DNA from: an uncultured Acidobacteriia bacterium
GTDB lineage: Bacteria > Acidobacteriota > Terriglobia > Bryobacterales > Bryobacteraceae
Direction of reading: 5' to 3'
NCBI GenBank assembly: GCA_903923395.1
Contig: CAIXXM010000072.1
Span: 3,849 to 67,848 of the forward strand
Length of the DNA stretch: 64,000 nucleotides
The position numbers and the translations under genes are program-made. This document shows positions 1,825-23,933 of the stretch, piece by piece. Positions within the stretch are counted from its first letter, which is position 1; the number at the start of each line of letters is the position of its first letter. A model generated the notes under the pieces. It was given only the letters and a program-made list of their open reading frames with translations. It was not told the origin of the DNA and did not search any database.

Positions 1825-1952
1825 TCGTTGTTTGCTCCAAATCTTCGGTGCAGCTTTTTCTCAATCCGCGTACACCGGTCACTAACAGGTTCTCTGCGGT
1901 ATTACAGGGAGATACGCGGCCGGACAGAGAGACCGGCCGCGATTCTTACGGC

Positions 1953-2603
1953 TTACTTGCTGTACAGTTCGACGATCAGTTGTTCGTTGATCGGAATCTG
2001 GGTCAACTCGTCACGCCGGGGGTTGGAGATGATCCGGCCCTTGAGGTTTTCCTTGTCGACATCCATCCAGCTCGGGCTGGGCGCGTGGGCCGTGGCGTCA
2101 CGGCTGCTCAGGATGGCGGCATTGGTCTTGCTGGATTCGCGAATGGTGATCTCATCACCGATCTTCACGACGAAAGACGGGATGTTGACCTTGCGGCCAT
2201 TGACCTGCACATGACCGTGACGAACGATCTGGCGGGCTTGGGAACGGCTGGCACCGAGACCCATGCGGTAGATGACGTTGTCGAGACGGCGTTCGAGGGA
2301 GGCGAGGAGGTTTTCACCCGCAATACCCTTCATGTGAACAGCCTTCTCGAACGTGTTGCGGAACTGGGTTTCCAGAACGCCGTAGATGCGGCGGACCTTC
2401 TGCTTTTCGCGCAGTTGGAGACCATAGCCGACGATCTTTGCCTTGCGGTCCTTGCCATGCTGGCCGGGAACAAAGTTACGCTTTTCGATCGCGCACTTTG
2501 CCGAGTGGCAGCGCTCACCCTTCAAAAACAGCTTCATGCCCTCGCGCCGGCAGAGGCGGCACACGGGGCCAATATAACGTGCCAAGTAAATCTCCTTGAA
2601 CAA
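1953..2603 (-). CDS. rpsD: 30S ribosomal protein S4 (Cys4 zinc-type N-terminus)
   Basis: 216 aa. [30 protein letters not shown] plus a C-terminal S4 RNA-binding domain. Position fits the alpha operon. Confidence 0.96.
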
Positions 2604-2698
2604 ACGTGCGGTTTACGTCCGGCTGTTCCGGACTTCATCCCGCTACAAACAAAGAATCGCGGAGAGCTTCCGCCCTCCGCAAAACCAGAGAAACCAGA

Positions 2699-3106
2699 TC
2701 AGACGCGGCGGCGCTTGGGAGCGCGACATCCGTTGTGCGGGATCGCCGTGGTGTCCTTGATCAGGCGGACATCGAGACCAGCGGTGGCCAAAGCGCGGAC
2801 CGCGGATTCACGGCCGGAGCCGGGACCGCTAACTCGAACTTCAACCGAACGCAGACCAACTTCGGACGCCTTGTTGGCGGCCGTCATGGCTGCCTGCTGC
2901 GCTGCGAACGGGGTACCCTTGCGGGAACCACGGAAACCAAGAGAACCAGCGCTCGACCACGATACGGTGTTGCCGTCCGGATCCGCGATGGTGACAATCG
3001 TGTTGTTGAAGGTGGCCTGGATATGAACCACGCCATTGTGTACGACGCGTTTCTCCTTCTTTTTGACGACCTTCTTCTTCGAGGGCTTGCCTGCTGCTTT
3101 CGCCAT
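2699..3106 (-). CDS. rpsK: 30S ribosomal protein S11
   Basis: 135 aa. ...[21 protein letters not shown]...[11 protein letters not shown]... hallmark. Confidence 0.96.
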
Positions 3107-5377: not shown

Positions 5378-6774
5378 TACGCTGAACTGCGTCGGCCCCG
5401 GATACGCCCGGCACGGGGAGTGAAACCCTCGTAATGACGCATGATCAACTGTGCCTCGATCTGATTGACGGTATCCATTGCAACGCCGACAACGATCAGG
5501 AGACTGGTGCCACCGAAGTAGAACTGCACGTTCAAGCCTTCGAGGATGAACCGCGGGAAGAACTTATCAATGAAGTTACCGATCAGCGGCAGGTGCTGCA
5601 AGTGGATACCCGAGATCATCACGTCAGGAATCAGGCAGAGGATGCTCAGATACAGGCCGCCGACGACTGTAATCTTCGTCAAAATATTGTTCATGTAGTC
5701 GGCTGTATTCCGGCCTGGGCGAATGCCAGGGATAAAACCGCCGTACTTACGCATGTTGTCTGCCGCTTCGTTCGGGTTGAAGATGATCGAAACGTAGAAG
5801 AAGCAGAAGAAGATGATCAGTGCCACAAAGAGCAAAATGTACAAGGGCTCGCCGTGTGCAATCGTACGCAGAAGATCGCTCGCCCAGCGGCTGCTCTTGA
5901 TGATCGGGAAATTTGCAATCGTCTGCGGAAATGCCAGGATCGACGAAGCGAAGATAACCGGAATCACACCGCCCGCATTCACCTTGAGCGGCATGTGTGT
6001 GGACTGTCCACCCATCACCCGCCGGCCAACTACCCGCTTGGCATACTGCACAGGAATCCGGCGCTCGCCGCGTTCGACCAGTACGATGAAGGCGACTACC
6101 GCTATCATCATCGCAAGGATAACGACCAGAGTGATCGGCGTCCATTCCTTGGTGACGAATACGTTGTTGTAGATATTGCCGATCGCGCCAGGCAGACCGA
6201 CCACGATGCCGGTGAAGATGATGAGTGACATCCCGTTACCGATACCGCGCTCTGTAATCTGCTCACCGAGCCACATGATGAAGGCAGTTCCGGTAGTTAG
6301 CGATAGCATCGTGAGGATCACGAAGCCGAAGCCGGGGTTGATAACGATATTCCCTTCCATCGCCTGCAATCCAGTCGCAATACCAAACGATTGAGCCATC
6401 GCCAGACCCACCGTCAGGAACCGGGTCCATTGGGTAATCTTGCGGCGCCCGAGTTCTCCTTCCTTCTGCATCTTTTCGAGCGTAGGCACGACGACCGTCA
6501 GCAACTGAAGGATAATCGACGCCGTGATGTACGGCATGATGCCCAGTGCAAAGATCGTCAGGCGCTTGATGTTGCCGCCCGCGAACATGTCAAAGAAGCC
6601 GAAGATAGAACCGGCATTGCGGGAGAAGAATTCTTCCCAGCGCACCAGGTTGATTCCCGGCGTAGGCACGTGGCCCCCCAGCCGGTAAACGGCCAGGAGA
6701 CCAAGCGTAAACAGGAACCGCTTCCGGAGTTCCGGAACGCGGAAGATATTGCCGAGCGCTTCAAACAACTTCAC
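5377..6774 (-). CDS. secY: preprotein translocase subunit SecY
   Basis: 465 aa polytopic membrane protein. N-terminus ...FRVPELRKRFLFTLGLLAVYRLG... Position fits the spc operon. Confidence 0.97.
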   Translation of the reverse strand: MKLFEALGNIFRVPELRKRFLFTLGLLAVYRLGGHVPTPGINLVRWEEFFSRNAGSIFGFFDMFAGGNIKRLTIFALGIMPYITASIILQLLTVVVPTLEKMQKEGELGRRKITQWTRFLTVGLAMAQSFGIATGLQAMEGNIVINPGFGFVILTMLSLTTGTAFIMWLGEQITERGIGNGMSLIIFTGIVVGLPGAIGNIYNNVFVTKEWTPITLVVILAMMIAVVAFIVLVERGERRIPVQYAKRVVGRRVMGGQSTHMPLKVNAGGVIPVIFASSILAFPQTIANFPIIKSSRWASDLLRTIAHGEPLYILLFVALIIFFCFFYVSIIFNPNEAADNMRKYGGFIPGIRPGRNTADYMNNILTKITVVGGLYLSILCLIPDVMISGIHLQHLPLIGNFIDKFFPRFILEGLNVQFYFGGTSLLIVVGVAMDTVNQIEAQLIMRHYEGFTPRAGRIRGRRSSA

Positions 6775-6799
6775 GGAGATTCAGCTCTTTCCGGACTGC

Positions 6800-7249
6800 T
6801 TAAGCAGCAGCCCCGATAACCTTGACCGTACCGCCGGCCTTCGCAATCTTCTCAGCCGCAGACTTGGAGAAGATGTGGGCCTCGACCGTAATTGCGCGGG
6901 TAATTTCGCCCGTACCGAGGATCTTCAAGCCATCACCAATCTTCTTGATGATGTTGAGTTCCACGAGACGGTCCACGTTGAAGGTATCGCCGGGCAGCTT
7001 CTCCAGGGTCTTCAAGTTCACAATTGCGAATTCCTTCTTGAAGATGTTTGTGAAGCCACGCTTCGGCAGACGGCGGTGAAGGGGCATCTGGCCGCCTTCA
7101 AACCCGCGCATGATGCTGTAGCCGGAAATGGAGCGGGCACCCTTGTGACCGCGGGTCGACGTTTTGCCGCGCCCGGAACCCATACCACGGCCGATCCGCT
7201 TTTTGCGGTGTTTCTGGCCCTCTGGCGGTCGAATATCACTGAGATTCAT
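6800..7249 (-). CDS. rplO: 50S ribosomal protein L15
   Basis: 149 aa. ...RIGRGMGSGRGKTSTRGHKG...GFEGGQMPLHRRLPKRGF... Confidence 0.96.
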   Translation of the reverse strand: MNLSDIRPPEGQKHRKKRIGRGMGSGRGKTSTRGHKGARSISGYSIMRGFEGGQMPLHRRLPKRGFTNIFKKEFAIVNLKTLEKLPGDTFNVDRLVELNIIKKIGDGLKILGTGEITRAITVEAHIFSKSAAEKIAKAGGTVKVIGAAA

Positions 7250-7264
7250 CGAAGAGTCCTTCTA

Positions 7265-7450
7265 TTAGTCAACGAGCGAGAGCAGGTGCGGAATTTTCAA
7301 CACACACCCGCGGAAAGACGGCGTATCGGGCCGCTCCACCACCTGGTTGATCTTCTTCAGACCCAGGCTCCGAACAATTACTTTGTGCTTTTCCGGTGTG
7401 CAGATCGGGCTGCGCACCAGCTTGATCTTGATCATCTTCTGGTCAGACAT
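7265..7450 (-). CDS. rpmD: 50S ribosomal protein L30
   Basis: 61 aa. ...IKIKLVRSPICTPEKHKVIVRSLGLKKINQ... Confidence 0.93.
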   Translation of the reverse strand: MSDQKMIKIKLVRSPICTPEKHKVIVRSLGLKKINQVVERPDTPSFRGCVLKIPHLLSLVD

Positions 7451-7962
7451 TACATCTTCTCCACGGTCAGACCGCGCATCTCAGCAACGGCGCTCTTGTC
7501 GCGCAGTTGTTCGAGAGCATTGATCGTCGCCTTCACCACATTGTGGGGATTGTGGCTGCCGATCGACTTGGTGAGAACGTTCGGAATGCCGCAGGCCTGC
7601 ACAACCGCGCGCACCGGACCGCCGGCGATCACGCCGGTACCATCCGGAGCGGGCTTCAACAGCACCAATCCAGCGCCGAACTTGCCCAGAACCTGATGCG
7701 GAATCGTGTGTTCGAGAAGGTGGATGCGGCGAAGATTCTTCTTGGCCGACTCAATTCCCTTCCGGATCGCCGAAGGAACTTCCTTCGCCTTGCCGACACC
7801 GAAACCAACCACACGGGCCTGCGCATCACCCACCACCACAAGCGCGGAGAAGCTCATGTTCTTACCGCCCTTGACCACCTTCGTCACGCGGTTGATCGCG
7901 ACGACATTTTCCTTCAGATTCAACGACTGGGGATCAACCCTCTTCACCGTAACGGCTGCCAT
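7450..7962 (-). CDS. rpsE: 30S ribosomal protein S5
   Basis: 170 aa. ...[24 protein letters not shown]...[17 protein letters not shown]... Confidence 0.96.
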
Positions 7963-11232: not shown

Positions 11233-11450
11233 TATTTCGCCGTCCCTTCTTGACCAACGCTGGCTAATTCCCGCTGACGGAGATAAGTGAGAAGCCGGGC
11301 GCGATCCTTACGAATCTCGCGGACCTTCCGCACACCTTCCGTCTGGCCCATCGACATCTGAAACTTCAGCCGGAAAGCCTGCTCTTCCATTTCCCGCAGC
11401 TTGGTCTGCATTTCAGCGGGATCGAGCCCCCGCAGCTTGTCTTTCTTCAT
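11232..11450 (-). CDS. rpmC: 50S ribosomal protein L29
   Basis: [31 protein letters not shown]... from ATG 11450 (72 aa). The track ORF start at 11471 adds 7 residues. Either start is possible. Confidence 0.92.
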
Positions 11451-11532
11451 GTCAGCCCTTTGCCTCAGCACTTGCCCCGCGCGTCCAGCTCTTTCAAAGC
11501 GCCGCCGGGACAGTTTGCAATCAAAACTTCTG

Positions 11533-11949
11533 CTATTCCACCGTTTCCCGCTGCACGAACTTCGTGGTCAACGGGATTTTGTGGGCCGCGAGACGCATCG
11601 CCGCCTGGGCGACGTCGGGAGCAACTCCCTCAATCTCAAACAAAATCTTGCCCGGACGGATCACTGCCACCCATTCTTCCGGAGCACCCTTACCCTTACC
11701 CATACGGGTTTCAGCGGGCTTTTTGGTGATCGGCTTATCCGGGAACAACCGGATCCACACCTTGCCACCGCGCTTGATGTAACGGGTCATCGCGATACGT
11801 GCGGCTTCAATCTGCCGCGCCGTGATCCAGCCACATTCCATGGCCTTCAGCGCGTATTCGCCGAACGCGATCGAAGAACCGCGCCAAGCTTTACCCGTCA
11901 TACGGCCCCGCTGTACTTTGCGGTATTTAACTTTCTTGGGCATCAACAT
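11533..11949 (-). CDS. rplP: 50S ribosomal protein L16
   Basis: 138 aa. [21 protein letters not shown]... Confidence 0.96.
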
Positions 11950-11976
11950 ATGTCAGATCTCCTCGTGCCCCAATCC

Positions 11977-12936
11977 TTATTCCGCAGCCGGCGCTTCGCC
12001 GGTGCCATCGCCATCCTGCTTCCATGTCGGAGCCACAGGAGCCATCAACGGGGGAAGAATTGGTCCACCCGAACGCTGCGGCTGTTGAGCCGGTGCGGCC
12101 TGCACAGCAGCTACAGGTTCCCCAACGGCGCGTTCACCACGATCAGCAAACTGCCGATCAGAAGCTTGACGGTCGCCACCCTGCCGATCACCACCAGGAC
12201 GATCACCACCAGGACGGGGTCCACGGCGGTCACGGTCACGGCCACCACGATCGCGATCACGCTCGTTGCGGCGGGGCTCACCGTCACCAATACCACCGGT
12301 GCGCTTGCCACCAGGGAGAATTTCACCCTTGTACAACCACGCCTTCACGCCGATCACACCGTAGGTTGTGTGAGCTTCCGAGAAGCCATAGTCGATGTCG
12401 GCACGCAGCGTGTGCAGCGGCAACTGACCCTGCAGATACCATTCCGAACGCGCGATTTCCGCACCATTCAGACGGCCCGAAACGCGAACCTTGATCCCCT
12501 TGCAACCGAAACGCAGGGCACTGTCCACAGCCTTGCGCATCGCGCGGCGGAAAGCCACGCGCTTTTCCAGCTGCAGTGCAATCGATTCCGAAACCAGCTG
12601 CGCGTCGAGCTCGGGCTTATGCACTTCCTGGATATCGATGAAGACTTCCCGCTTCGTCGACTTCGCCAGAGACTGTTTCAGCTTTTCAATTTCAGCGCCC
12701 TTGCGGCCGATGATGATACCAGGACGGGAAGTCCGGATCGTCACACGGAGCTTATTGCCGGGACGGTCCACTTCCACCGAGCTGACACCGGCGGCCTTCA
12801 GCTGTTTGCGCAGACCTTCCTTCAGTTCCAGGTCTTCCTGCAGCAGCTGGGCGTAATTACCCTTCGAGAACCAGCGTGACCGCCAGGGCTTGTTGAAGCC
12901 AAGCCGGAAGCCGTATGGATGTACTTTCTGACCCAT
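11977..12936 (-). CDS. rpsC: 30S ribosomal protein S3 with ~105-aa low-complexity Arg/Asp/Gly/Pro C-terminal tail
   Basis: 319 aa. [13 protein letters not shown]..., a KH domain and an S3-C domain reach about ...[11 protein letters not shown]. The tail follows: ...[32 protein letters not shown]... Confidence 0.95.
12121..12300. repeat. short in-frame tandem/low-complexity DNA repeats encoding the GGDR(P/Q) tail of S3
   Basis: Repeated CTGCCGATCA and GATCACCACCAGGAC units are visible at 12161-12215, followed by CACGGTCACGG/CACGATCGCGATCAC runs. Confidence 0.7.
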
Positions 12937-13327: not shown

Positions 13328-13612
<285 letters not shown>

Positions 13613-13615
13613 GGG

Positions 13616-14440
13616 TTACTTGCTCCTCCGTTTCACAATAAATTTGTCCGTACGCTTGTTGTTGCGGGTCTTGAAGCCGCGTGTCGGCTGGCCCCAGGGC
13701 GTCACAGGATGACGGCCACCGGAGGTCTTGCCTTCACCACCACCATGCGGGTGATCGACAGGGTTCATCGAAACGCCGCGGTTATGCGGAGCCCGGCCGA
13801 GCCAGCGGCTGCGTCCAGCTTTACCGAGCGCCTGGTTTTCATGATCGGAGTTGCTAACCACGCCAACCGTCGCCATGCAATCGCTCGAAACCCGGCGGGT
13901 TTCGCCCGAAGGCAGCTTCAACAGTGCCACACCGCCTTCGCGGCTAACCAGTTGGGCTTGCGTGCCGGCAGAACGGGCCATCTGTGCGCCCTTGCCAACC
14001 TTCAACTCAATGTTGTGCACCACGGTACCGGCAGGGATGTTCTTCAGCGGCAATGCATTGCCAACCAGGATGTCGGCTTGCGGTCCACTCTGCACGGTCA
14101 TCCCGACCTTCAGGCCTTCGGGCGCAATGATGTAGCGCTTTTCGCCATCAATGTAGTGGAGCAGTGCGATGCGTGCCGTACGGTTCGGATCATACTCGAT
14201 CGCGGCAACCTTCGCAGGAACGCCCGTTTTGTCCCGCTTGAAATCAATAACGCGGTACGACTGCTTGTGACCACCGGATATGAACCGGCTCGTCACGCGC
14301 CCCGTATTATTACGACCGCCGGACTTCGTGATCTTCTCGACGAGGGATTTCTCCGGCGTCTGCTTTGTGATGTCCTCGCGCGTCACCACCGTCATGTAAC
14401 GGCGGCTCGGGGTAAAGGGGGTAAATTTCTTGATTCCCAT
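13616..14440 (-). CDS. rplB: 50S ribosomal protein L2
   Basis: 274 aa. ...GRNN.GR.T.R..GGGHK..YR.IDF.R... and ...[26 protein letters not shown]. Confidence 0.97.
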
Positions 14441-14461
14441 TGTTATTGTCCGTTTCGCCCG

Positions 14462-14749
14462 TTAGACTTCCGCGAATTCCGGGACTTTCTGTCCGGCCAC
14501 GAGCTTCACATAGGCCTTCTTCCAGTCCGAACGATAGCCGGCAAACTTACCCCGGCGCCGCAATTTGCCTTCGAAATTCGCCGTGCGAACTTCTTCCACC
14601 TTCACGTTGAACAACTTCTCAACGGCCTGCTTCACCTGAATCTTGTTGGCGTCCGCGTGGACTTCGAAGCACAGCGTGCGCTCTTCATCCTTCTTGGTGA
14701 CGCCCTTTTCAGTGACGAGCGGGCGCTTCAGAACATCATGGACCGTCAT
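14462..14749 (-). CDS. rplW: 50S ribosomal protein L23
   Basis: 95 aa. ...LKRPLVTEKG...CFEVHADANKIQVKQAVEKLFNVKV... Confidence 0.95.
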   Translation of the reverse strand: MTVHDVLKRPLVTEKGVTKKDEERTLCFEVHADANKIQVKQAVEKLFNVKVEEVRTANFEGKLRRRGKFAGYRSDWKKAYVKLVAGQKVPEFAEV

Positions 14750-14751
14750 GA

Positions 14752-15423
14752 CTAGCTCGCCGCCTCCGTATTCGCTGTAGTGGCTGACTTCGGTGCCGAC
14801 TTGGCGAGCGTTTCGCTCAACTTCGTCGCAGCAGCCTGGGTCAGGAACACCTTCTTCGCTCCAAGCAAGTGGTAGGGGTGAACTTCATGACTCTTCACGA
14901 GTTCCACACCTTCCAGATTGCGGCTGGAAAGTTCCAAGTTCCGGTTTTCCACCGCTTCCACTAACAACACTTTGTTCGGCGAGCCGAGCTTGGCGAGGGT
15001 GAGCTTGAAGTTCTTGCTCTTGTGATCGTTCAGATCGAAGGCTGAGATGATCGACAGCTGGCCGTCGCGAAGCTTCACAGAAAGAGCCGAACGGAGTGCA
15101 CCCAGGGCCATCTTCTTCGGCAGACGATAACTGTAATCGCGCGGTTGAGGTCCATGGACCGTGCCGCCATGACGCCAGATCGGGCTGCGAACCGAACCCA
15201 TACGGGCGCGGCCAGTTCCCTTCTGCTTCCAGAGCTTTTTGCCGGAACCTTCGACTTCACCACGGCCCTTGGTCGCGTGAGTGCCAGCGCGCTTGCCCGC
15301 CAGATAATGCCGGACCGCTTCATAAAGGAGGGCTTCGTTGACTTTTGCGCCAAACACCGCGTCAGAAAGTTCGACTTCGCCGACCTTCGAATTATTGAGA
15401 TCTAAAACATCTACCTTGGGCAT
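14752..15423 (-). CDS. rplD: 50S ribosomal protein L4
   Basis: 223 aa. ...KGRGEVEGSGKKLWKQKGTGRARMGSVRSPIWRHGG..HGP.PRDY... Confidence 0.96.
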   Translation of the reverse strand: MPKVDVLDLNNSKVGEVELSDAVFGAKVNEALLYEAVRHYLAGKRAGTHATKGRGEVEGSGKKLWKQKGTGRARMGSVRSPIWRHGGTVHGPQPRDYSYRLPKKMALGALRSALSVKLRDGQLSIISAFDLNDHKSKNFKLTLAKLGSPNKVLLVEAVENRNLELSSRNLEGVELVKSHEVHPYHLLGAKKVFLTQAAATKLSETLAKSAPKSATTANTEAAS

Positions 15424-16156: not shown

Positions 16157-16480
16157 TTACTGCTTTCCGAACGCTTTGATTTCCACGTCGACACCAGCCG
16201 GCAGGTCGAGTTTCATCAGGGCATCCACCGTTTGCTGCGTCGGCTCGAGAATATCGAGCAAGCGCCGGTGAGTCCGGATTTCAAACTGTTCCCGTGACTT
16301 CTTGTCCACGTGGGGCGAACGGAGCACTGTCGTCCGCGAGGTCGACGTCGGCAAGGGAATGGGACCAGCCACGCTGGCCCCCGTCCGTTTTGCCGTATCC
16401 ACAATCTCGCTCGTCGATTGATCGAGCACACGATGATCGTATGCTTTCAACCGGATACGAATGCGATCTTTTAGAGCCAT
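16157..16480 (-). CDS. rpsJ: 30S ribosomal protein S10
   Basis: 107 aa. ...[16 protein letters not shown]...GPIPLPT...[27 protein letters not shown]... Confidence 0.97.
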
Positions 16481-16509
16481 CTCTTCACTCAGTCTTCCTT
16501 ACAATCTTG

Positions 16510-17697
<1,188 letters not shown>

Positions 17698-17744
17698 GAA
17701 CCCGAATCTCCTTCAATCACACTTGCGAATACGCTTGGTGGAAA

Positions 17745-19838
17745 CTACTCCGCTGAACTCTTGCCCTGCTGGCGGCTGATCACTTCTTCGGCCACGTTCT
17801 TGGGTACTTCTTCGTACCGTGAGAAGTGCATGGTGAAGCTGCCGCGTCCCTGCGTCGAGGAACGGAGCACCGTCGCATAGCCGAACATTTCAGACAACGG
17901 GACACTCGCCTTCACGACTGTCGTTCCGCCCATGGATTCCGTACCTTCCAGGCGACCGCGACGGCTGATGAGATAGCCATTGACGGGCCCCATGTATTCT
18001 TCCGGAACCACCACTTCCACTGCCATCACCGGCTCCAGCAGAACCGGCTTCGCCTTGCGTGCCGCTTCCTTAAAGCAGATGGAGGAGCAAATCTTGAACG
18101 CCATTTCCGAAGAGTCAACGTCATGGTACGCGCCGTCGAACAGCGTCACCTTGATATCAACCAGCGGGAAGCCAGCGAGTACGCCGCCTTCAAGCGATTC
18201 GAGAACACCCTTTTCAACGGCCGGGACGTATTCCTTCGGAACCGTGCCACCGACAACGTCGTTTTCAAACTTGTAACCTTCGCCCGGAATCGGTTCCACG
18301 CGGAGCTTGGTGCGGGCATACTGACCCGAGCCACCGGTCTGCTTCTTGTGCGTGTAATCGTATTCGGCGGTCTGGCGGATGGTTTCGCGGTACGCCACCT
18401 GGGGCTTGCCGACGTTGGCCACCACACCGAATTCGCGCATCATGCGGTCCACAATGATTTCCAAGTGGAGTTCGCCCATGCCGGAGAGGATGGTTTGACC
18501 GGTTTCCGGATCGGTCGCAACACGGAAGGTTGGATCTTCCTGGGCCAGCTTGTTGATCGCCATGCCCATCTTTTCCTGATCGGCCTTGGTCTTTGGCTCA
18601 ACGGCCAACTGAATCACAGGCGTCGGGAAGTCAATGCGTTCGAGAACAACCGGATCTTTTTCGTCGCAGATCGTGTCGCCGGTCGAAACAGTCTTGAGAC
18701 CCACAGCCGCGCAGATATCGCCAGCCATAATCTCTTGAATGTCTTCGCGCTTGTTGGCATGCATCCGGAGCAAACGTCCGACGCGTTCCTTGCGGCCCTT
18801 GGCAACGTTGTAGATCGACTCACCGGCAGACATCTTGCCCGAATAAACCCGGAAGAACGCCAACTGGCCGGAGAACGGGTCCGTCATGATCTTGAAGACC
18901 AGAGCGGCGAAGGGTTCGTCATCGGAGGAGTTGCGGATGACCTTGACTTCAGGATCGTCAACGGACTGACCCTGCACCGGAGGAATATCAAGCGGGCTGG
19001 GCAGATAGTCGACAACGGCGTCGAGCATCGTCTGCACGCCTTTGTTCTTGAAGGCCGAACCACAAATCACCGGGAAGAAGTTCATGGCGATAACCGCTTT
19101 GCGGATGCCAGCGCGGAGCTCAGCGACCGTAACTTCCCCACCGTTGACGTACTTCTCAAAGAGAACTTCGTCGTTTTCCGAAACCGCTTCGATCATCTGC
19201 TCGCGGTACTGCTGGGCCTTTTCGAGATAGTCGGCGGGAATATCGACCACGTCGAACTTCGCGCCCAGAGTTTCGTCGCGCCACAGAACTGCTTTCATTT
19301 CAACGAGATCAATGATCCCCTTGAACTGATCTTCCGCACCCACCGGGATCTGAATCGGCACCGGACGTGCTTTCAGACGGTCCACGATGGTATCTACAGC
19401 GCGGTAGAAATCCGCACCGATACGGTCCATCTTGTTGATGAAGCAGATACGGGGGACGCGGTACTTGTCCGCCTGACGCCAAACCGTTTCCGATTGGGGC
19501 TGCACACCAGCCACCGCATCAAACACAGCAACCGCACCGTCCAACACGCGAAGGGAACGTTCCACTTCGGCCGTGAAGTCCACGTGACCAGGGGTGTCAA
19601 TGATGTTGATCTGCATATCCCGCCAGCTGCAAGTAGTCGCAGCAGACGTGATCGTGATTCCGCGTTCCTGCTCCTGCTCCATCCAATCCATGGTGGCGGT
19701 GCCTTCATGGACTTCGCCGATCTTGTGGGAACGGCCCGTGTAATACAGGATGCGCTCGGTCGTGGTGGTCTTACCGGCATCGATGTGAGCAGCGATGCCG
19801 ATGTTTCTCATCTTCTCTAGGGGTATGGTGCGTGGCAT
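17745..19838 (-). CDS. fusA: elongation factor G
   Basis: 697 aa. [21 protein letters not shown]. str-operon position. Confidence 0.98.
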
Positions 19839-21518: not shown

Positions 21519-22727
21519 TTACCGAACCGTGCCCGCGAGTTGCTTCCCCGTGGTCTTCCCATCCAAGTCCGGCAACAGCGCGGTCAGAATCCCGATGGCC
21601 GGCAGGAACGAACAAATCTGGTAAACGTACGCGATCCCGGAGTGATCCGCCAGCTTCCCCAACAGCGCTGCCCCGATTCCCCCCATCCCGAAGGCCAGTC
21701 CAAAGAAGACGCCGGAGATCATCCCTACCTGCCCTGGCACCAACTCCTGCGCATAAACGACAATTGCGGAGAACGCCGAAGCGATCACGAGTCCGATCAA
21801 CACACTCAGTACCCTGGTCCAGAAGAGATTGGCATGTGGCAGGGCCAGAGTGAAGGGCAGCACGCCCAGGATAGAGATCCACAGGACGCGCTTGCGCCCG
21901 ATGCGATCACCAATGGGTCCTCCGAACAGTGTTCCGGCAGCGGTTGAGCCAAGGAACAGGAAAAGCAGCAATTGGGCATCCTGGACGGACAGGTGGAACT
22001 TATCGATGAGAAAGAAAGTGTAATAGCTGGAAATCCCGGCCAGGTAGAAGTACTTCGAAAAGACAAGCAGCCCCAGGACCGTCAGCCCCAGCAGCACCTT
22101 TGCGCGCGACAAGCCACTCGCCGGGTGCGCCTTTCTGGCCTGCTTTTCCGCTAGATGTGCCTGGTACCACCCGCCGACTCTCCACAACAAATACATCGCA
22201 AGCAGCGCGGCCAAAGAGAACCAAGCAAGACTTCCCTGCCCTCCCGGCACGACAATAAACGCAGCAAGCAATGGCCCCATCGCCGACCCCGCCGTGCCGC
22301 CCAGCTGATAGATCGACTGCGCCATACCGAATTGCCCGCCGGAGGACAACCGGGCCACCCGCGAAGATTCCGGGTGAAATATGCTCGACCCCATGCCGAC
22401 GAATGCCGCCGCCAGGAGCAGTAATGCGTAAGTTGGTGCCACCGAAAGCATCAGCAATCCGGTCAAGGTAATCCCCATGCCGGCAACCAGCGAATACGGC
22501 ATCGGCTTGCGGTCGGTATAAAGGCCGACAAAGGGTTGCAGGATGGAGGCCGTCAGCTGGTAGGTCAGTGTGATCAGTCCCAGTTGGGCGAAATCCAGAT
22601 GGAACGAAGTCTTGAGAATGGGGTAGACCGCTGAGATCAGGCTTTGGACCAGATCATTCAGCAGATGGCAAATGCTCACGAACAGCAGAATTCGAAACGC
22701 TGTATCCCGCTCACTTCGCGGCAGCAC
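21519..22727 (-). CDS. MFS transporter (Fsr / fosmidomycin-resistance-like subfamily)
   Basis: Polytopic. N-terminal ...AFRILLFVSICHLLNDLVQSLISAVYPILK... resembles the Fsr family. The track start (ATG 22796) lies inside the continued rhodanese frame. An in-frame GTG at 22727 (17-nt overlap) is more plausible. The start remains uncertain. Confidence 0.85.
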   Translation of the reverse strand: MLPRSERDTAFRILLFVSICHLLNDLVQSLISAVYPILKTSFHLDFAQLGLITLTYQLTASILQPFVGLYTDRKPMPYSLVAGMGITLTGLLMLSVAPTYALLLLAAAFVGMGSSIFHPESSRVARLSSGGQFGMAQSIYQLGGTAGSAMGPLLAAFIVVPGGQGSLAWFSLAALLAMYLLWRVGGWYQAHLAEKQARKAHPASGLSRAKVLLGLTVLGLLVFSKYFYLAGISSYYTFFLIDKFHLSVQDAQLLLFLFLGSTAAGTLFGGPIGDRIGRKRVLWISILGVLPFTLALPHANLFWTRVLSVLIGLVIASAFSAIVVYAQELVPGQVGMISGVFFGLAFGMGGIGAALLGKLADHSGIAYVYQICSFLPAIGILTALLPDLDGKTTGKQLAGTVR

Positions 22728-23655
22728 TGGACTTGACAACAACAGGAAACCCTTTCTCGATCCAACCCTCAAACCCGCCTTCGAGCGGGCGGACACGCGT
22801 AATTCCCATCCTCTTCAACGAGAGCGCCGCACGGGCGCTCGAAGCTTCGTTTGGTCACGAACAGTAGAGAATAATGTCCTGATCGAAGGGCAACTGCAGG
22901 CGTTGCGACTCCAGTTCAGCGGGCCGGTAGTGCAGGGCTCCGGGCAAAATCTCATTTCCTTCTTCCAGTTCGTGACGCAGATCAATGATGACGAGTGGCT
23001 CGCCACGGTCCATCATGGCTTTGACTTCTTCGGCAGCGATGCGGGAAATGCGCAGTTTGCGGAGGAAGGACCAGCGCTGCCAATATTTCCAGATCAGCCA
23101 GGACAGCAGCGGCACGCACACCGCAACACCGAGCCACTTCCCGGTGCCCATGACCCGGTCCGCCAGTCTTTCCAATTCCCCGCCGAACAGCCAGCCCGTC
23201 ATAAGGTAGGACGCGGCCCAGATCAAACTTCCAGCAATATCAAAGAAGAGGAAGCGCCCAAAGTGCATGCGGATCACACCGGCGAGCGGCGGCGCCACGG
23301 TGCTCAGGCCCGGGATGTACTTGGCGTAGAGCAGTGTGGCGGCACCGCGCTTGGCGAAGACCTCTTCCGTCTTGCGGACGCAGGAATCCGGTTCGAGCGA
23401 CACCTTGCAAAGGAGCTTCAAGACCTTCGCGCCTTTGATGCGTCCCAGCCAATACCAGGGAATGTCGCCTGCAAGGCAGCCAGCCGCGCCAACTGCAATG
23501 GCCATGCCGATCGAGAGCCGGCCTGTCGCCGCCAATGCTCCTGCCGCGAGAAGTACCGGCACACAGGGAATCGGCAACCCCAACTGCTCTGCCAGGACCG
23601 CGCCGAACACGAAGGCGTACCTGTGGGCCAGCAGTAAGGCTAACAGTTGCCGCAT
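22711..23655 (-). CDS. DedA (VTT/SNARE-associated) membrane domain fused to a C-terminal rhodanese domain; in-frame UGA (22857-22855) at the catalytic Cys position, candidate selenocysteine
   Basis: MRQLLALLLAHRYAFVFGAVLAEQLGLPIP... is a DedA N-terminus. The rhodanese part reads ...PLVIIDLR...DQDIILYCS-TGA-PNEASSARAALSLKRMGITRVRPLEGGFEGWIEKGFPVV.... The same frame stays open to TGA 22713-22711, and the total length of 1005 nt is divisible by 3. If the TGA is a genuine stop, the CDS is 22855-23655. Confidence 0.6.
22813..22844 (-). other. SECIS-like stem-loop 10 nt downstream of the in-frame UGA
   Basis: Minus strand: UGA-CCAAACGAAG-CUUC-GAGCGCC-CGUGC-GGCGCUC-UCGUU-GAAG. The stem has 7 + 4 bp. 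The apical loop contains G and U and begins 24 nt after the U of the UGA. Confidence 0.5.
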
Positions 23656-23933
23656 ATCACTGGTGTAGCATCCCCGGATCAGTGGCCAGAGCCACACGCA
23701 CTGCCCATGGCCCAAAATTTACGGCCCGCGAACCGAACCCGCAGGATGGAAGGGGATGGCAACACACGCCAACCCCAGAAGTTGCGCCGCTTGCCCGGAA
23801 GATTCTTAAAAAATGTAAGGAAACTTGCAGTGGACCGGAATAAACCGTTATGCTTCGTTTATATTCTGGTTGGGAAAGTGCTTGGGGTTCTCTGCAGGGG
23901 TGTGGAGACGGGTCGTAAAGGGATTCATCGTAA

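Follow-up and report, generated by a model that had tools for sequence, protein, structure and literature searches.

Rhodanese selenoproteins have long been known from computational surveys (PMC1088965, PMC1976440), and a version with a CxU motif is listed under 'COG0607 form 2' in one catalogue (PMC9312934) and under 'form 3, NF041203' in another (PMC13188914). The latter family (rhodanese_LYCAU), predicted from sequence, is a stand-alone protein of about 126 aa with a single rhodanese domain, in which selenocysteine (Sec) lies two residues past a conserved Cys (L-Y-C-x-U). A different elaboration is represented by TsoB (NF045694; PMC13188914), a rhodanese/DsbD fusion-like selenoprotein. Here we describe a gene on the minus strand (22711..23655) of a 64,000-nucleotide stretch, hereinafter the window, of contig CAIXXM010000072.1 from an uncultured Acidobacteriia bacterium of the family Bryobacteraceae. 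Comparison across its homologues makes it very probable that the gene truly encodes a selenoprotein and that an in-frame UGA (22857-22855) is read as Sec; its selenocysteine insertion sequence (SECIS) is well supported. Its rhodanese domain shares with NF041203 the single-domain organization and the placement of Sec relative to the conserved Cys; unlike that family, it forms the C-terminus of a 314-aa fusion to a DedA membrane domain and carries the motif LYC[S/T]UPNEA. The CxU rhodanese selenoprotein as such is already known, and the DedA-fused, membrane-anchored architecture is the extension; no paper in the literature searched links a selenoprotein in this way to DedA, VTT or SNARE-associated domains.

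The in-frame UGA and the coding tail beyond it

The gene begins with the ATG at 23655, a start that matches the N-termini of homologues P0002-P0009, and comprises 314 codons, including one Sec codon, followed by a stop TGA. Its frame runs through ...DQDIILYCS into the TGA at 22857-22855, continues for 47 open codons (PNEASSARAALSLKRMGITRVRPLEGGFEGWIEKGFPVVVKSSAAAK) and ends at the TGA at 22713-22711 (minus strand), with the same or a nearby end conserved in the related loci L002, L003, L005 and L006. Re-reading of the window showed that the coordinates and sequence given for this interrupted open reading frame (ORF) in an earlier sequence-only reading were exact. On its own, an open extension of 47 codons is not significant, because the window is G+C-rich and a naive scan of it yields 235 TGA-joined ORF pairs. 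The significance of the extension derives instead from homology, as the Pfam Rhodanese match runs across the TGA of the joined protein, and against NF041203 the truncated product scores 24 bits but the joined one 73 bits.

Searching with the joined sequence recovered five relatives at 100, 88, 66, 65 and 58% identity, all called as proteins of 265-266 aa ending at the TGA, together with over 100 full-length relatives (313-332 aa, about 50% identity). In the latter, an invariant Cys occupies the TGA column within the motif YC[ST]CPNEA[ST][SA]A (63 homologues aligned), and CxCPNE is present in 113 of the 120 retrieved homologues. In the DNA of four truncated relatives (L002, L003, L005 and L006), the codon in question is likewise TGA, and the tail beyond it is intact and conserved; further, identical TGA-ended products, or the same in-frame TGA, recur across independent samples. 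The column at which the sequence-only reading had proposed to look for Cys or Sec displays Cys in the full-length relatives and TGA in the truncated ones, and a UGA aligned with Cys in homologues is one of the marks of a bacterial selenoprotein gene. Its claim that annotation truncates the gene likewise holds, given that the public gene calls retrieved for the Sec form end at the TGA, at 265-266 aa, and are named simply 'DedA'. Among the database proteins retrieved, none contains U or is named as a selenoprotein, and a search with the rhodanese domain alone returned only short or fragmentary rhodaneses, again without a selenoprotein name. An apparent co-occurrence of Sec and Cys alleles inside the 90% cluster of P0010, a Cys-form homologue, was rejected, the 270-aa members being degraded fragments of the Cys form.

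To survey the TGA form, species-representative genomes and metagenome contigs were scanned with a DNA pattern built from the protein motif L-[YF]-C-[ST]-TGA-P-N-E-A, which gave at least 120 matches in the genomes and at least 120 in the metagenome contigs. The family counts used throughout (246 loci, of which 196 are complete, and 229 unique sequences) are those among the matches listed rather than family totals. The genome matches listed come mostly from Acidobacteriota (Bryobacterales, Acidoferrales, Thermoanaerobaculia, Acidobacteriaceae and Korobacteraceae), with further carriers in Rokubacteria, Myxococcota, Binatia, and one metagenome-assembled genome (MAG) each of Udaeobacter and Pseudomonadales. 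Nearly all of the 246 loci stay in frame for 40-60 codons past the TGA, with the conserved pattern ...SAR...G[IV]..[VI]RPL.GG..W, and share the active-site motif L-[YF]-C-[ST]-U, which in the window reads L-Y-C-S-U. The full DedA plus rhodanese architecture with a single TGA is found in 179 of the 196 loci complete at both sides, the 17 exceptions mostly being frameshifts or extra upstream stops, along with one masked run and one duplication. The duplication, in L128 (metagenome contig WNGQ01136698.1), repeats a DedA segment within the upstream ORF so that ILQLLCKISLEPDSCVRRTEG occurs twice, and may be an assembly artefact or a true tandem duplication. Near-full-length TGA members show 32-89% identity to the window protein (median 47%).

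The pattern of substitution past the UGA is that of coding sequence. In comparisons of the window with its four closest relatives, the ratios of synonymous to replacement changes in the first 40 codons past the UGA are 8:0, 16:7, 15:7 and 16:10, as against 9:6, 11:16, 13:13 and 9:23 in the 40 codons before it. Family-wide, conservation of the tail residues R, P, L, G, G and W reaches 93-99%, while their codons vary freely. These figures indicate that the 47-codon tail is translated and under purifying selection at the protein level, and that this selection is stronger in the tail than in the 40 codons before the UGA. Another mark of a bacterial selenoprotein gene, namely coding conservation with purifying selection downstream of the UGA, is thereby present. 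Decayed or frame-shifted tails in relatives, which in the sequence-only reading would have spoken for a plain truncation, were not encountered as the general state: the tails are intact, in frame and conserved.

The hairpin 3' of the UGA and its decoding

The bacterial SECIS is a hairpin inside the coding sequence directly 3' of the UGA, with a stem 10-20 nucleotides (nt) away and a conserved G/U in a small apical loop. In the window, folding, RNAalifold and covariation support a SECIS-like hairpin at 22822..22840 (minus strand), in which GAGCGCC (22840-22834) pairs with GGCGCUC (22828-22822) around the loop CGUGC (22833-22829). Its 7-bp stem (nt 17-23 with nt 29-35) begins 14 nt past the UGA and its loop 21 nt past it; the position, size and loop content fit those of a bacterial SECIS. 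The Escherichia coli fdhF SECIS has the same placement and spacing and a small apical loop with a conserved G/U. Unlike fdhF-type elements, the present hairpin is family-specific, combining a 7-bp G+C stem with a CGKGY pentaloop, and no bulged U was identified in it. A search of the window against Rfam gave no match, including none for the hairpin.

The imprint of this structure on codon choice is evident from the 229 unique family sequences, in which codons +6 to +10 are nearly fixed as AGC GCC CGK GTG GCG. Ser is encoded by AGC in 192 of 204 cases, the two Ala by GCC in 224 of 228 and GCG in 200 of 228, Val by GTG in 170 of 171, and Arg only by CGT or CGG; elsewhere in the gene these amino acids use all their codons. 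Three of the base pairs (17-35, 20-32 and 23-29) link third codon positions at both ends, and protein constraint therefore cannot account for their behaviour. At pair 17-35, 101 sequences have C-G and 55 have G-C (Fisher p = 5e-16); at pair 20-32, C-G occurs in 195, G-C in 13, U-A in 6 and U-G in 4 (Fisher p = 5e-27); and 224 sequences have C-G at pair 23-29. The loop conforms to CG[U/G]G[U/C] in 225 of 228 sequences. A formal pair count over 100 sequences found 91% of cells paired and five of the seven pairs changed on both sides, with a covariation score that none of 500 shuffles reached, and every slid register pairs only 23-58%. A further mark of a selenoprotein gene, a SECIS hairpin supported by covariation immediately 3' of the UGA, is thus also found.

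Cys forms offer a natural control; none occurred among the loci fetched, and four were obtained through their proteins. In three of these four the hairpin is degraded, the loops reading AAAGC, CGGAT and CGCCT and 4-5 of the 7 pairs remaining. The other one, P0010 (codon TGT; L247:1074-1133), which is the Cys form nearest the Sec clade, has it intact with 7 of 7 pairs and the loop CGUGC; it probably represents a recent Sec-to-Cys replacement that still bears a 'fossil SECIS'. Additionally, 234 of 237 Sec forms have Val or Ala as residue +9 (window codon 22828-22830), whereas 81 of 113 Cys forms have Leu there, and it appears from this contrast that the need of the SECIS loop for a G at nt 27 dictates the amino acid at +9.

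Several observations weigh against the decoding of this UGA as Sec. The covariation statistics ignore phylogenetic relatedness, and the intact hairpin of P0010 means that the structure is not strictly confined to Sec forms. ARAGORN detected no tRNA-Sec in the 64-kb window nor in 1.64 Mb of related loci, and no SelA, SelB or SelD was recognized when the 20 largest ORFs of the window were searched with Pfam; these ORFs include rpoA, secY, a PMT_2 glycosyltransferase, BlaR1-like, GT4, ABC, multicopper oxidase, radical SAM, quinohemoprotein amine dehydrogenase, SSF, galactokinase and MFS products. A scan for a TGA followed by the same apical hairpin brought up only seven junk frames besides the DedA-rhodanese family, and no second selenoprotein candidate. 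Because neither the Sec machinery nor a second candidate was found, we infer Sec decoding in this organism rather than show it. Acidobacteria have been reported to possess selenoproteins (PMC1794560, Table 2).

Three other explanations take the UGA for something other than a Sec codon. The gene might simply be truncated, whether as a pseudogene, by a nonsense mutation or through a misread TGC or TGT, leaving a 266-residue DedA protein with a dead partial rhodanese. Such a view accords with the gene callers, which end at the TGA, and with the 17 of 196 complete related loci that have extra upstream frameshifts or stops. However, the same TGA recurs in about 240 independent assemblies of homologous loci at protein identities as low as 32%, the tail is intact, in frame and more strongly selected than the 40 codons before the UGA, and the RNA hairpin covaries, none of which a decaying tail would show. 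The comparative data effectively refute plain truncation, and we consider it very improbable. The intact tail can in turn be accommodated in a second manner, by supposing that the UGA is a true stop and that the 47 codons are separately translated as a small complementing peptide. Selection on the tail at the protein level is compatible with this proposal, with nothing specific in its favour; however, the codons past the TGA always read P-N-E-A, leaving no start codon at the junction, and the tail invariably carries on the frame of the upstream ORF. Moreover, the Cys homologues encode one continuous polypeptide, and a split at this point would cut the active-site loop of a single compact fold. 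A two-product arrangement is, to our mind, close to negligible.

A more serious contender is insertion of a standard amino acid (Cys, Trp or Gly) at the UGA, for which the Sec machinery would not be needed; the hairpin would then be a generic stimulator of read-through. Downstream hairpins are indeed known to stimulate read-through in other systems, and the above searches for the Sec machinery found none of its components. Nevertheless, TGA terminates roughly half of the 61 long window ORFs as well as this very gene 47 codons later; as it thus behaves as an ordinary stop, there is no global reassignment of UGA. Further, three features combine into the classical bacterial Sec signature: the UGA stands where homologues have an invariant redox Cys, the G+C-rich hairpin has conserved G/U bases in a loop that begins 21 nt past the UGA, and the domain family includes catalogued CxU selenoproteins. 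Read-through with a standard amino acid hence strikes us as improbable. The core proposal of the sequence-only reading, a membrane-anchored Sec rhodanese, is in this way upheld by the conserved TGA, the Cys column, the selection on the tail and the covarying hairpin.

Domain architecture and the active-site loop

The product, 314 residues long, begins with a polytopic membrane domain of the DedA/VTT type; a basic linker next to the membrane (WKYWQRWSFLRKLRISR) leads from it to a single-domain rhodanese at the C-terminus. The membrane domain (residues 30-155; 23191..23568, minus strand) belongs to the DedA/VTT family PF09335 by its gathering score, with 56.6 bits against a cut-off of 33.9. The rhodanese domain (residues 208-300; 22756..23034, minus strand), which is split by the Sec codon, falls within PF00581 (50.9 bits against a cut-off of 22.2; E 2.3e-13), and its assignment is also borne out by the fold and by the Cys in which the central strand ends. 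As judged by profile scores, the DedA part is a generic DedA family member only, as it attains 54.5 bits against the UptA model NF052604, the curated cut-off of which is 250. The rhodanese reaches 23.9 bits against the GlpE model NF001195 (curated cut-off 102). Cys forms are named 'DedA family protein/thiosulfate sulfurtransferase GlpE' by NCBI and 'membrane protein DedA with SNARE-associated domain/rhodanese-related sulfurtransferase' by JGI, and 'GlpE' in the NCBI name is a domain-level label.

A structure was modelled with AlphaFold2 (AF2) for the Cys-form P0010, standing in for the window protein (predicted local distance difference test score, pLDDT, 86.5; predicted template modelling score, pTM, 0.77). 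In this model residues 2-202 are all-helical, and the best Foldseek match is the rhodanese domain of 3tp9 (root-mean-square deviation 1.5 A), with many other rhodaneses also matched. The positive-inside rule suggests that the rhodanese faces the cytoplasm. The DedA domain additionally houses an invariant Cys-x8-Cys pair, C83 and C92, in the motif LC[KR]xSLEPDSCVR (23380..23409, minus strand). The pair is invariant in all 64 rows of the family alignment and is kept in all 125 Sec forms in which the motif pattern matched. It is a feature specific to the DedA-rhodanese fusion family, and such a pair is not known from the DedA paralogues of E. coli. The protein thus has four conserved redox-capable residues: C83, C92, C265 and U267.

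The position of Sec in the rhodanese active site deserves closer scrutiny. Sec267 (22855..22857, minus strand) is the third residue of the active-site loop C-S-U-P-N-E, and C265 (22861..22863, minus strand), which is invariant in all homologues, lies at the end of the central beta-strand. Profile-profile comparison of the family with GlpE using hhalign places C265 opposite Cys65 with a probability of 95%, with a GlpE sequence that was entered by hand and with a two-residue insertion needed after the loop in the DedA-rhodanese family. HMMER alignments to 3tp9 and 3gk5 likewise put the catalytic Cys opposite C265, whereas an ungapped HMMER alignment to 6mxv puts it opposite the UGA. In the AF2 model of P0010 the central strand ends just before the first Cys, the loop follows as C-T-C-P-N-E, and a helix starts from the next Ala. 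Three of the four alignments and the model hence concur that C265 most likely occupies the canonical catalytic position, with Sec267 two residues further in the same loop as part of a C-x-U dyad, of which both positions are invariant. This revises one element of the sequence-only reading: the UGA does fall on an active-site-loop column that is an invariant Cys in the Cys homologues, but its equation with the catalytic Cys of GlpE is favoured by the 6mxv alignment alone and contradicted by hhalign, 3tp9, 3gk5 and the AF2 model.

With this framework, the affinities of the family can be better delimited. NF041203 is the best NCBIfam match of the domain (E 1.5e-20; profile positions 19-124 of 126 aligned to residues 202-306), but the joined protein scores 73.2 bits, comparable to the 73.7 bits of P0010 and below the cut-off of 115 bits, and is therefore not a member of NF041203 by the NCBI criterion. 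The Cys-form DedA-rhodanese fusions, which are its direct Cys orthologues or paralogues, share the architecture, the length of 313-332 aa at about 50% identity, C83, C92, C265 and the PNE loop; they differ in having TGY in place of the UGA, in lacking the SECIS hairpin in three of the four examined, and in mostly having Leu at +9. TsoB likewise is a selenoprotein in which a rhodanese is joined to a polytopic membrane domain for redox chemistry or transport, but its partner is DsbD-like and it carries two Sec in a UxxxxU motif; P0010 scores a marginal 15.6 bits against it. E. coli YgaP and GlpE share the single-domain rhodanese fold (the Foldseek matches 5hbo and 2mrm are YgaP), and YgaP is also membrane-tethered. 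Neither of them, however, has Sec or a second loop Cys, the anchor of YgaP consists of C-terminal helices rather than DedA, and the active-site loop of the DedA-rhodanese family is, in the alignment, two residues longer than that of GlpE.

Possible function, genomic context and significance

By the established bacterial mechanism, SelB with Sec-tRNA(Sec) would bind the hairpin on the mRNA and insert Sec at the UGA, and translation would then terminate at the UGA at 22713-22711. In the resulting protein C265 would most likely hold the canonical persulfide-carrying position, with Sec267 providing a second, more nucleophilic chalcogen. With low confidence, the Cys-x-Sec dyad could be envisaged to cycle via a selenenylsulfide, or to carry or resolve a persulfide or perselenide. 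The protein might accordingly be pictured as a membrane-tethered sulfur/selenium transferase or reductase at the cytoplasmic face, its rhodanese chemistry perhaps being coupled to the movement of a DedA substrate and to the C83-x8-C92 pair. A role in selenium or sulfur trafficking is speculation. In its most specific form, this would be an undescribed, widespread selenoprotein of soil bacteria in which DedA moves a chalcogen-containing or redox-sensitive substrate (e.g., selenite, thiosulfate, polysulfide or a lipid-linked species) that the cytoplasmic Cys-x-Sec rhodanese and the C83-x8-C92 pair capture or reduce at the membrane. We regard this as a rather unlikely, if attractive, possibility; if true, it would for the first time give biochemistry a way into the old genetic connection of DedA proteins with selenite.

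The gene neighbourhoods lend no support to such functional proposals, as there is no family-wide conserved neighbour, the commonest cluster occurring in 37 of about 244 listed loci, and several of the neighbourhood clusters are antisense artefacts. Downstream of the gene in the window lies an MFS transporter gene (21519..22676, minus strand), a neighbour seen only in the close clade (the window, L002 and L005). The longest ORF of this gene starts from the GTG at 22796, overlapping the rhodanese tail in another frame. The Pfam MFS_1 match, which begins from residue 2 of a product started at 22676, and the L002 orthologue, called 33 nt past the selenoprotein stop, indicate that the real start lies near 22676, 35 nt past the selenoprotein stop. 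A DinB-family gene adjoins the selenoprotein gene upstream in L002 (5342-5896) and downstream in L003 (7323-7820). The window lacks it, the selenoprotein gene being followed there, after no more than about 280 bp (23656-23933), by a divergent asparagine synthase gene on its upstream side.

Two other features of the window may be recorded. The minus-strand segment 51691-55279 encodes the alpha subunit of a quinohemoprotein amine dehydrogenase (QHNDH; 606 aa), a radical SAM protein (480 aa) and a 110-aa ORF, and this cluster resembles a QHNDH maturation operon. On the plus strand, ORFs of 315-528 aa without a Pfam match (1848-3026, 6749-7696, 11401-12879, 13571-14755 and 16294-17880) run antisense to the minus-strand rpoA/secY/ribosomal-protein region or are scattered through it; they are probably spurious, a product of the G+C-rich genome.

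The Sec form being truncated in the public gene calls retrieved, an abundant selenoprotein of soil bacteria goes uncounted there, and the start of its neighbour can be mis-called. As a large family (at least 120 matches in each of the two collections scanned) found mainly in Acidobacteriota, it would enlarge the selenoproteome of a phylum for which few selenoproteins have been recorded (PMC1794560). The family also constitutes a clean natural data set of Sec/Cys pairs, in which a compact SECIS appears to dictate Val or Ala as opposed to Leu at +9. Finally, the tethering of a Cys-x-Sec rhodanese to DedA gives a concrete hint at the substrates that some DedA proteins deal with.

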